Of a stretch of DNA of 24,000 nucleotides, positions 14,154 to 17,038 are shown one piece after another. The stretch covers positions 490-24,489 of the forward strand of contig JBEKSU010000015.1 in the NCBI GenBank assembly GCA_049516755.1, in the 5' to 3' direction. The DNA comes from Verrucomicrobiota bacterium. Lineage in GTDB: Bacteria; Verrucomicrobiota; Verrucomicrobiia; Limisphaerales; UBA11358. How positions within the stretch are numbered: position 1 is the stretch's first letter; each line of letters opens with the position of its first letter. The notes beneath the pieces were generated by a model. It saw only the letters and a program-made list of their open reading frames with translations. It searched no databases and was not told the DNA's origin. Made by a program: the position numbers and the translations under genes.

Positions 14154-15809
14154 TCATGACCGGTTCAGCGCGCTCAACACGGCGCGCACGGACGCCAGCT
14201 CGATGTTCGTGTCCACGCCCGCGCCCCAGCGCGTGCGCCCATCGGCGTGCTTGATTTGAATGTAGGCAATCGCCGCCGCCGCCTCGCCGGAACCCAGGGC
14301 GTGCTCGCTATAATTGACGATTTCGAAACGCGGCACCCCGGCCTTGCCGAAACCGTGGACCAGCGCGGCAAGCGGGCCATTGCCTTCACCGGAAAGCTCG
14401 ACCGGCTTGCCGTCGCGCAAAAATATTGCGCGGCATTTGACGACGCCGTTTTTGCTCTCGGTTTCAAAGCGCTTGAGCTGCCACGGCTGGGAGCGTTCGA
14501 TGTATTCGCGCCAGAACATCTTTTTCAATTCGGCACCGCTGACTTCGCGGCCGAGCTTGTCCACCTCGTCGTTGGCAATCGGCCCGAACTCGCGCTGCAT
14601 GTCCTTGGGCAATTCGATGCCGAATTCGCTTTCGAGCAGGTACGCCACGCCGCCTTTGCCGGACTGGCTGTTGACGCGGATGACCTCGCGGTATTCGCGC
14701 CCGATGTCCGCCGGGTCAATCGTGAGATAGGGCACGTCCCAATGCGTGCGGCCATTTTCCTTCCATTCATTCAAACCTTTCTTGATGGCGTCCTGGTGCG
14801 AGCCGCTGAACGCCGTGAAGACCAGTTCGCCCGCGTAAGGCTGGCGCGGCGGCACCGTCATGCCCGTGCAACGTTCGTAAACGTCGATAATGGAATTGAG
14901 GTCCGAGAAATCCAGCTTCGGATCGATGCCGTGCTGGTAAAGGTTCAACGCCACGGTGACGAGGTCGAGGTTGCCCGTGCGCTCGCCGTTGCCGAAGAGC
15001 GTGCCTTCCACGCGATCCGCGCCCGCGAGCAGGCCCAGTTCCGTCGCCGCCACGCCGGTGCAGCGGTCATTGTGCGTGTGCAAACTGACAATGAGCGACT
15101 CGCGGTTTTTGATGTTCCGGCAAATCCATTCAATCTGGTCGGCATAGACATTCGGCATCGCCACCTCGACGGTGTCCGGCAGGTTCAAAATCATTTTTCT
15201 CTTCGGCGTCGGTCGCCACACGTCCATGACCGCCTCGGAAATTTCCTTCGCAAATTCAACCTCCGTCGCGCTGAAACTTTCCGGCGAATACTGGAGCATG
15301 ACTTCCGTGCCCTTGAGACGCGGCAACCGGTCCTGGATCCATTGCGCGCCGCGCACGGCGACCTCGACAATTTCCTCCTTGGATTTGCCGAACACGACGC
15401 GGCGTTGGGCGGGGGAGGTCGAGTTGTAAAGATGAATAATGGCCTTCTTCGCGCCGACCAGCGATTCGACCGTGCGTTCGATCAACTCTTCCCGCGCCTG
15501 CACGAGCACCTGGAGCCAAACGTCGGCCGGTACGCGTTTTTCCTCGATGAGCCGGCGGTTGAACGCGAACTCGGTGTTTGATGCGGACGGGAAACCGACT
15601 TCGATTTCCTTGAAGCCGCATTTCACGAGCGTCTGGAACAGCTCAAGTTTCTGGCCGACATTCATGGGCACGGCGAGCGCCTGATTGCCGTCGCGCAAAT
15701 CCACGCTGCACCAGACGGGCGCATGGGTGAGGACGCGGTTGGGCCACTGCCGGTCGGGCAAACTGACCGGCGGGAACGGACGATATTTTTTCGACGGTTG
15801 TTTATGCAT
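14154..15809 (-). CDS. leuA: 2-isopropylmalate synthase, long form (LeuA type 2)
   Basis: KKYRPFPPVSLPDRQWP...VWCSVDLRDGNQAL...HTHNDRCTGVA plus a C-terminal regulatory domain. The track ORF starts at 15920, but homologues as I recall them begin shortly before the YRPF motif, so ATG 15809 (MHKQPSKKYRPF) is preferred. Confidence 0.92.
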   Translation of the reverse strand: MHKQPSKKYRPFPPVSLPDRQWPNRVLTHAPVWCSVDLRDGNQALAVPMNVGQKLELFQTLVKCGFKEIEVGFPSASNTEFAFNRRLIEEKRVPADVWLQVLVQAREELIERTVESLVGAKKAIIHLYNSTSPAQRRVVFGKSKEEIVEVAVRGAQWIQDRLPRLKGTEVMLQYSPESFSATEVEFAKEISEAVMDVWRPTPKRKMILNLPDTVEVAMPNVYADQIEWICRNIKNRESLIVSLHTHNDRCTGVAATELGLLAGADRVEGTLFGNGERTGNLDLVTVALNLYQHGIDPKLDFSDLNSIIDVYERCTGMTVPPRQPYAGELVFTAFSGSHQDAIKKGLNEWKENGRTHWDVPYLTIDPADIGREYREVIRVNSQSGKGGVAYLLESEFGIELPKDMQREFGPIANDEVDKLGREVSGAELKKMFWREYIERSQPWQLKRFETESKNGVVKCRAIFLRDGKPVELSGEGNGPLAALVHGFGKAGVPRFEIVNYSEHALGSGEAAAAIAYIQIKHADGRTRWGAGVDTNIELASVRAVLSALNRS

Positions 15810-15956
15810 AAATTCAGGCGTTGAAGGAATTAAACCACAGGTTCCGCAGACGGGACAAATGGATTGTTGGGTGAGCCGCTTCGTTCTGCCGCCCAATAAT
15901 CCAGCAATCCAATGATCCATCCATCCGGTTTTGCTGCTCTGTGTTCATTCGTGGTT

Positions 15957-15990
15957 AAAACAAAAACCCCACCGCCGTTTGGCAGTGGGG
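15957..15990 (-). terminator. Strong intrinsic terminator hairpin upstream of leuA (candidate attenuator)
   Basis: The minus strand reads CCCCACTGCC-aaac-GGCGGTGGGG followed by TTTTTGTTTT. The stem is 10 bp with one G.U pair, which would be a C.A mismatch on the plus strand. No minus-strand gene ends upstream of it. Confidence 0.75.
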
Positions 15991-16012
15991 TTCGATAAAT
16001 CTCGTGAACGAA

Positions 16013-16084
16013 TCAGAACCCGACCGCCGCGCGGCACAACCGCAGCGCGTTTAGCAGCAGGTTCAGATTCAAATGGCAACTCAC
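16013..16084 (-). CDS. Candidate Leu-rich leader peptide (23 aa) of a leuA attenuator
   Basis: GTG 16084, then SCHLNLNLLLNALRLCRAAVGF, then TGA 16015..16013. 7 of 23 residues are Leu, including an LLL run. The last five codons overlap a segment that can pair with the terminator 5' arm. The start codon is weak (GTG, no SD), so this is tentative. Confidence 0.35.
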   Translation of the reverse strand: MSCHLNLNLLLNALRLCRAAVGF

Positions 16085-16171
16085 AACGACAACGTAGCAA
16101 TCACGTACGGTTCCGTCAAATGGTTTTTGGTCCGCGTCTTTCGGAAATCTGCCGGAGTGTGCGCCGAGGAT

Positions 16172-16299
16172 TTTGGACTGCGGTGGCAGCTTGCCGAGAC
16201 GAAGCGCAGCGAAGGCTGGAGCGTAGCGGCGACACCGCTTTTCGACTGTGGACCAGTTTCCAAAGCGGCGTGGCGCTTTGCTTCCCGCCGCAGTCCAAA
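16172..16299. repeat. Structured ~128-nt element bounded by 15-nt inverted repeats (dispersed-repeat-like, possible ncRNA)
   Basis: TTTGGACTGCGGTGG (16172..16186) pairs with CCGCCGCAGTCCAAA (16285..16299) at 14/15, the exception being a G.U-compatible pair on the plus strand. Internal hairpins are AGCGG-cgaca-CCGCT (16225..16239) and AAAGCG-gcgtgg-CGCTTT (16262..16279). It is open in several frames without credible genes. Confidence 0.7.
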
Positions 16300-16381
16300 T
16301 GGATTTAGTTGGAGCTACACTGAGTCGTGACCCATCCGAGTCAAGCTCGACGGAACCGTCCGCCTTTGTTAGTTTCCCGAC

Positions 16382-17038
16382 ATGATGATATTGACATCCA
16401 AAATCTCCGGATACTGGTTATGCGGACTTGCCTTGACCCTGCTTTCCGTTCCGGTTGTGATGGCCGGCGTGCAGATCGAAAAGGTTCGTAATGACAAGGT
16501 GCTGGTGATGGAGCAGACCTTGGCGCCAGGCGAGGACCTCTCCTTGCCGGGTGACCGCGCTGGCGTCGTGGTTTATCTCGACGCCGGATCGGTTGAAATA
16601 GCCCCGCCCCAGGAAAAGCCCCGGACCGAAACCGTCACGCGCGGAGAGGCTGTGTTTCAGCCGCCAAAATCCGGAACCGTCAAGAACGCCGGATCAGCCG
16701 CCTTGCGGGTTGTTTGGACCGAATATCTCGGAAAGGGCGGCTCGGAGACGTGGGGTACCAACGGACTGGCGCCGAATTACAAGGTCATCTTCGAGAACCA
16801 ATACGGCCGGGTTTATGACATCAAAATGGCGGCGGGAAAAAGCGAGCCGCTGCACAGCCATCATGATCGCGTCGTAATCTGCCTCTCAGGAGCCGAGTTG
16901 ATGCATGAAATGCCGGATGGCCGGAAGGAAACCGCCACCTTGAAAACGGGCGAGATCGCCTGGCGCCTCGCCACGACCCACATCGGCCACAACCTGGGCA
17001 AGACGGACCTGTGGGCAATTGCCATCGAGCCGAAATAG
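16382..17038 (+). CDS. Secreted cupin-like protein (two beta-barrel halves), function unknown
   Basis: Signal/TM segment ISGYWLCGLALTLLSVPVVMAG. The C-terminal half has a cupin-like motif, SEPLHSHHDRVVICLSGAEL...TGEIAW. Confidence 0.6.
   Translation: MMILTSKISGYWLCGLALTLLSVPVVMAGVQIEKVRNDKVLVMEQTLAPGEDLSLPGDRAGVVVYLDAGSVEIAPPQEKPRTETVTRGEAVFQPPKSGTVKNAGSAALRVVWTEYLGKGGSETWGTNGLAPNYKVIFENQYGRVYDIKMAAGKSEPLHSHHDRVVICLSGAELMHEMPDGRKETATLKTGEIAWRLATTHIGHNLGKTDLWAIAIEPK

Follow-up and report, generated by a model that had tools for sequence, protein, structure and literature searches.

A probable leucine attenuator with a predicted leaderless leader peptide upstream of leuA in the Verrucomicrobiota order Limisphaerales

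A terminator without an upstream gene

In the window (the whole stretch of 24,000 nt of Verrucomicrobiota DNA that was analysed) a strong intrinsic terminator is located on the minus strand upstream of leuA. There is no upstream gene that it could terminate, as had been pointed out in a preliminary description made from the sequence alone, and the nearest gene on that side is indeed divergent. This raises the question of what the terminator is for. The preliminary description had proposed a leader-peptide attenuator, in which translation of a short Leu-rich ORF would decide between terminator and antiterminator.

All parts named in that proposal were recovered (Table 1). The terminator has a 10-bp stem (15990-15981/15976-15967, including one G.U pair), the tetraloop AAAC and a T-tract, the mini-ORF of 23 codons contains seven Leu including a run of three (the others being codons 5, 7, 14 and 16), and the antiterminator strands 16028-16017 and 15992-15981 pair over 12 positions with one C.C mismatch and one G.U pair. 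Two further parts, a leader promoter and a 1:2 protector helix, were absent from the preliminary description. Taken alone, seven Leu in 22 codons are a modest enrichment (P=0.004 at 10% Leu), and it is conservation, not the Leu count of the window's own ORF, that rules out chance.

The downstream protein scored over the cut-off of TIGR00970 (leuA_yeast) in a profile search. A longer LeuA starting at 15920 and an ATT-started frame of 95 codons that extends into the leader were both rejected in favour of the ATG at 15809, because relatives align from 15809 and the sequence upstream of it is not conserved.

Several other features were observed around the leader. Between its promoter and the divergent gene lies a long REP-like palindromic repeat (about 16297-16170, -61 kcal/mol); related copies are present on five or more further contigs. 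The N-terminus of the divergent gene's product resembles a signal peptide, and the protein matched no NCBIfam family. From terminator to leuA, the spacer (15956-15820) forms an imperfect palindrome; its 5' motif is found 13 times in the genome, and the spacers of relatives, 48-184 nt long, carry differing palindromic inserts.

Table 1. Features of the leuA leader in the window and of related leaders elsewhere (G000, C and L numbers denote our genome, contig and locus labels)
Feature	Position	Strand	Remarks
-35 hexamer TTGACG, predicted leader promoter	16114..16119	-	from sequence and relatives
Extended -10 (TG-n-TACGTT)	16091..16099	-	17 nt after -35, 6 nt before GTG
Leader ORF, leuL-like	16013..16084	-	GTG 16084, TGA ending 16013; 23 sense codons, 7 Leu
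Leu control run CTG CTG CTA	16052..16060	-	codons 9-11
1:2 protector (anti-antiterminator) helix	16010..16070	-	Leu-codon strand x antiterminator 5' strand
Inner hairpin of 1:2 helix	16049-16028	-	candidate pause hairpin (inferred)
Antiterminator 5' strand	16017..16028	-	last five leader codons
Shared strand	15981..15992	-	terminator 5' arm and antiterminator 3' strand
Intrinsic terminator	15957..15990	-	10-bp stem; U-tract 15966-15957
leuA, 2-isopropylmalate synthase	14154..15809	-	551 aa; TIGR00970; regulated gene in the proposal
Divergent gene	16382-17038	+	218 aa; nearest upstream gene
ilvB leader, Val-rich, with terminator	G000:C145 ~2543-2672 (L278, L284)	+	24 codons; ATG 8-9 nt after -10
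DAHP synthase leader, Trp/Tyr/Phe-rich, with terminator	G000:C129 start 9743 (L191:1944-1800)	-	28 codons; GTG, predicted leaderless
His-rich promoter-proximal leader with terminator, before hisI-hisG	G000:C318 ~1070-1200 (L283)	+	
Terminator-bearing Leu leaders before leuA, other classes	L150, L152, L153, L159, L160, L165, L168, L171, L175		
CGA-Leu short ORFs with C-rich spacer, promoter-proximal, upstream of leuA, other orders of the class	L122, L126-L128, L130, L131, L133, L136, L138		

Alternative structures

The alternative structures that the proposal implies were borne out by folding, with none of 200 shuffles as stable as the terminator (-24.8 kcal/mol, z -5.4), the antiterminator (16028-15977; -22.5 kcal/mol, z -4.3) or the 1:2 helix (16070-16010; -34.5 kcal/mol, z -3.2). 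The naked 130-nt RNA folds as 1:2 helix plus terminator (-62.6). With the first 42 nt masked, the antiterminator was the best fold for RNA reaching up to the terminator loop. For the full RNA at equilibrium the terminator won despite the masking, so that read-through must be a kinetic, co-transcriptional outcome.

An alignment of 29 sequences showed the antiterminator pairs to be kept in 97.7% of cells, compared with 29-63% for slid controls, which supports the proposed attenuator, and two pairs were changed on both sides. The terminator was paired in 98.9% of cells, the 1:2 helices in 94-98%, and terminator and 1:2 helices together in 97.0%. The genomes are related to one another and the majority of pairs show no variation, so the covariation lends support but is not strong. 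In 25 of the 29 elements the element's own antiterminator duplex outperformed 95% or more of 200 shuffled sequences; five of nine elements from other classes passed the same test, in which the arm definition clipped some arms.

Conservation and link to leuA

Whether a Leu-rich mini-ORF and terminator are conserved in relatives had been set beforehand as a check on the proposal. A search for LeuA in 41 related genomes provided an unbiased set of 30 leuA loci, and at 29 of them promoter, Leu ORF, antiterminator and terminator were all found upstream of leuA. At the exception (L020) there is no element, and leuA lies directly behind another gene. A pattern scan of GTDB genomes, using a motif that fixes the element's 3' half, yielded 91 loci with leuA downstream in 88 and a contig edge in the other three. 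Among the 80 of these 91 loci that were listed, 68 are labelled Verrucomicrobiota (including Limisphaerales, Pedosphaera and subdivision 3), four only 'bacterium' and eight as other groups; we take the last as mislabels because their leuA genes are 85-94% identical to that of the window.

A covariance model of the element found a match in 110 of 121 genomes of the order (E<=0.001), seven of which were training genomes; outside training the count was 103 of 114. The best 30 matches all precede leuA (27 yeast-type, 3 bact-type), as do the seven weakest best-matches, which were inspected by eye. Two of the 11 genomes without a match were inspected, and one (L243) carries a diverged Leu leader with terminator and the other (L020) none. 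A weak model match in the window's genome (L285; G000:C83 minus, 4951-4833) consists of a 20-codon ORF and a terminator before a small ORF, with neither cognate-residue enrichment nor a clear promoter.

In several families the element also precedes leuA genes of the non-orthologous leuA_bact type, for which all ten proteins scanned were over the TIGR00973 cut-off; these proteins are about 30% identical to the window's LeuA. Judged from these sequence comparisons, the element follows function and not the gene, and its survival of leuA replacement argues for selection on the regulatory module itself. We attach hardly any probability to the idea that transcription from the leader promoter always ends at the terminator, giving a small RNA or peptide with a function of its own, and that leuA has a separate promoter. 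The terminator is strong and the spacer of 48-184 nt could house a promoter for leuA, but a conserved antiterminator would then be purposeless, the spacer varies and is frequently taken up by palindromic repeats, and the element is always tied to leuA.

Promoter and start of the leader

The mini-ORF starts with GTG and has no Shine-Dalgarno (SD) sequence, as the preliminary description had reported. What was regarded there as a weakness is accounted for by the promoter, which places the predicted +1 on the GTG. This promoter is sigma70-type (TTGACG-17-TACGTT) and ends 6 nt before the GTG, so that transcription is predicted to start at the G of the start codon and the leader ORF is probably leaderless. 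A generic sigma70 scan detected no promoter, the leader site reaching 8/12 at a threshold of 9/12, and the site was recognised only by comparison among relatives. In the set defined by leuA orthology a -35-like box was found 34-39 nt before the start codon in all 29 elements (26 TTGAC, 2 ATGAC, 1 TTGCGC) and TAnnnT 6-7 nt before it in 24.

Such an arrangement is not restricted to leuA. Genome-wide, ATG or GTG occurred exactly 6 nt after the -10 at 23 of 160 TTGAC...TAnnnT sites, whereas offsets 10-30 gave 5.2 on average (Poisson P about 1e-8), and 15 of these 23 starts open frames of at least 80 codons (12 ATG, 3 GTG). This suggests a sizeable class of leaderless transcripts in the window's genome. 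In one copy of the element, L242, the predicted +1 falls on an ATA and the GTG follows four codons further on, which counts against a leaderless attenuator. In 11 metatranscriptome runs at most 8% of the sequence words were present; RNA contigs of relatives (four runs, 85% likeness) span leader and leuA, such contigs being unable to show RNA ends. For mycobacteria a 5' ATG or GTG has been described as sufficient for translation, and for E. coli leaderless GTG initiation has been described as poor (both in PMC4633059).

Reading frame of the leader

The distance from promoter-defined start to stop was a multiple of three in all 90 of the 91 pattern-scan loci in which the frame could be followed (one lacked upstream sequence), over leader lengths of 63, 66, 69, 72, 75 and 105 nt. 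The spacer from stop to terminator takes all three phases (43/24/18). In the unbiased set 26 of 28 anchors shared one phase. We further compiled 138 distinct copies, 109 of which were gathered with a -35 filter and are thus not independent evidence for the promoter. They start with GTG (117) or ATG (21) and stop with TGA (115), TAG (16) or TAA (7); Leu makes up 31% of their codons compared with about 10% in long ORFs, and an SD-like word is present in two. These findings are consistent with selection on the leader frame, as for an ORF that is translated.

An untranslated switch that binds a protein or ligand, with the ORF as an accident of a GC-rich helix, is very unlikely in our estimation. 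The near absence of SD-like words would fit it, and so would the naked RNA, in which the helix of -34.5 kcal/mol buries the ORF and pairing of the 5'-terminal bases with the sequence behind the stop codon is frequent. This 5'-end helix is an exact complement in 46 of 117 GTG copies and one of 21 ATG copies, and no compensatory change in it was found among the 138 copies. Against such a switch stand the start-to-stop frame kept over six lengths, the use of all three stop codons at the same place, the restriction of the start to GTG or ATG, and an Rfam search of 15700-16500 (E up to 10), in which three matches were obtained, none near its cut-off and none to a riboswitch or T-box.

Leucine codons and sister leaders in other pathways

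CUG accounts for 608 of the 930 leader Leu codons and is also the commonest Leu codon of the genome (41%); TTG, CTT, CTA and TTA are used in the leaders as well. Base pairing may be part of the reason why CUG is retained. The assembly contains tRNA-Leu genes with GAG, TAA and CAA only. The heavy use of CUG counts against the proposed attenuator, given that in Salmonella CUG lowered the sensitivity of the leu attenuator (as cited in PMC1183508).

Comparable leaders were found in other pathways (Table 1). A Val-rich leader precedes ilvB at 27 of 30 loci, with starts mostly 7-9 nt after the -10, and a leader rich in Phe, Trp and Tyr precedes DAHP synthase at 12 of 13 full-length orthologous loci. 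The contig with the His-rich leader may be contamination, given its 63% GC and a second hisG in the genome. Before trpE, ilvC, cimA and a leuC-like gene of the window's genome no leader was detected.

The tracking of the pathway by the cognate residue, Val before ilvB and aromatic before DAHP synthase, speaks against a translated leader that switches the terminator but reports the general translation rate or initiation efficiency, with CUG kept mainly for 1:2 pairing. So do the Leu positions filled by TTG, CTT, CTA and TTA and the association of the element with both LeuA families. What makes us regard this reading as improbable, and not more remote than that, is that the dominating CUG does pair with the antiterminator strand, that the leaders prefer GTG (117 of 138) where long leaderless ORFs prefer ATG (12 against 3 GTG), and that Streptomyces coelicolor leaders are described as codon-insensitive or non-classical (PMC1262725). 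There, look-alike ilvB and leuA leaders turned out on mutation not to be classical attenuators (as cited in PMC1262725), which also counts against the attenuator proposed here.

Proposed mechanism

We consider it highly probable that the element is a classical ribosome-mediated transcription attenuator on a leaderless transcript, which senses charged tRNA-Leu and controls leuA. A short ORF enriched in Leu, a terminator, an antiterminator exclusive with it, a 1:2 helix and a cognate gene, as in classical attenuators, are all present. What the analysis shows is the arrangement of the parts, their folding and conservation, the selected reading frame and the association with leuA; the start of transcription, translation, pausing, stalling and the response to leucine, as set out below, are inferred.

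RNA polymerase would start at the G of GTG 16084, and a ribosome would initiate on the 5' GUG without an SD. With enough leucine the ribosome would reach the stop codon and cover 16028-16017, so that the terminator forms and an RNA of about 127 nt is released near 15957. When leucine is short, the ribosome would stall at codons 5-14 and block the 1:2 helix. Segment 16028-16017 would then be available for pairing with 15992-15981 while the 3' arm of the terminator has yet to be transcribed, and polymerase would read through into leuA. If no ribosome is loaded, the 1:2 helix would form, and owing to this helix of the Leu codons termination would be the default. leuA is thereby very probably switched on only when leucine is scarce.

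Comparison with known systems

The enterobacterial leuL leader resembles the window's element in its Leu run, its 1:2, 2:3 and 3:4 helices, its intrinsic terminator and the leuA gene downstream, and in the alignment of the Rfam family Leu_leader (RF00512) to the window the Leu-Leu-Leu-Asn-Ala codons and the following hairpin match. The enterobacterial leuL start is SD-led. The window's element differs from leuL in its predicted leaderless GTG start, in its control codons, which are CUG and not CUA, and in its proposed control of a lone leuA of either IPMS family. With 17.8 bits (E 0.62) against a gathering threshold of 50 it does not belong to RF00512, which exceeded its cut-off in none of 31 genomes, the best leu locus reaching 34.9 bits.

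Similar in build, by description, are leaders of Streptomyces lividans (leuL1-leuA, leuL2-leuS, ilvL and trpL1), where the ORF lies at the transcription start behind nTGACn/TAnnnT, as predicted for the window; leuL2, ilvL and trpL1 also have a hairpin with U-stretch, whereas the leuA leader is described without an intrinsic terminator (PMC8079986), unlike the strong one of the window. The actinobacterial LEU element similarly has an upstream ORF with a Leu run before leuA, but for that element a pseudoknot between the Leu codons and the leuA SD is reported, and no terminator is described (PMC1262725). The window's element is not a LEU element, as its Leu codons pair with the antiterminator strand, a terminator is present, and leuA starts about 150 nt past that terminator. 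In Corynebacterium, which belongs to a different phylum, leader peptides are described for the same three pathways (aroF, ilvBNC, leuA), and the ilvB leader of C. diphtheriae is leaderless (PMC4046766, PMC5784534).

Given the precedents in S. lividans (PMC8079986) and corynebacteria (PMC5784534, PMC4046766), neither the mechanism nor the leaderless build is new; the mechanism is a textbook one, and the value of the element therefore lies in its host and build. The preliminary description had held leader-peptide attenuation to be undocumented in PVC-type bacteria. For Verrucomicrobiota this stood, in that no paper on attenuation or leaders was found in the literature searched. The main texts of PMC2965389 and PMC4833913 leave the phylum unmentioned, and a supplementary table may hold a prior prediction. 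Among PVC bacteria, Chlamydia trachomatis carries the annotation of a TrpL that is putative and unvalidated (PMC7755916).

Leucine leaders beyond the order

LeuA of the window's type occurred in 78 of 151 genomes in a draw across the phylum. In other classes, nine of 40 loci had a promoter-proximal Leu ORF with an intrinsic terminator but of different sequence (Table 1), and the covariance model scored these leaders weakly (16-26 bits). Among 28 loci from further orders of the window's class, 16 had a promoter-proximal ORF containing Leu under permissive criteria, none carried a U-tract terminator, and nine had a CGA-Leu codon pair, which was counted post hoc after being noticed in the same loci. 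This pair is also present in 20 of the 138 terminator-bearing copies and absent from the window's leader. The CGA-Leu leaders are possibly under Rho-dependent or translational control.

A wider reading, which we offer tentatively and think rather doubtful, is that leuA, ilvB and DAHP synthase of Verrucomicrobiota are run by promoter-fused leaders, with a Leu sensor older than both its output and its gene. With promoter and leader fused, starting a transcript and loading a ribosome would be a single event. The sensor for Leu would have stayed while leuA was swapped between two non-orthologous families, its output being a terminator in the window's order and at least one other class and terminator-less in other orders. 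If true, the phylum would be a natural experiment in which terminator, Rho-dependent or translational outputs are swapped under one leaderless sensor.

Significance

There is, in our view, a strong likelihood that the element is a real leucine attenuator found across the order. It would extend leader-peptide attenuation to a widespread, mostly uncultured order of Verrucomicrobiota, and would represent a missing Rfam family as well as an unannotated small ORF in more than 100 genomes. Leaderless GUG-start translation is documented mainly in Actinobacteria. The element suggests that leaderless GUG-start mRNAs might be translated well enough for regulation in these bacteria as well.
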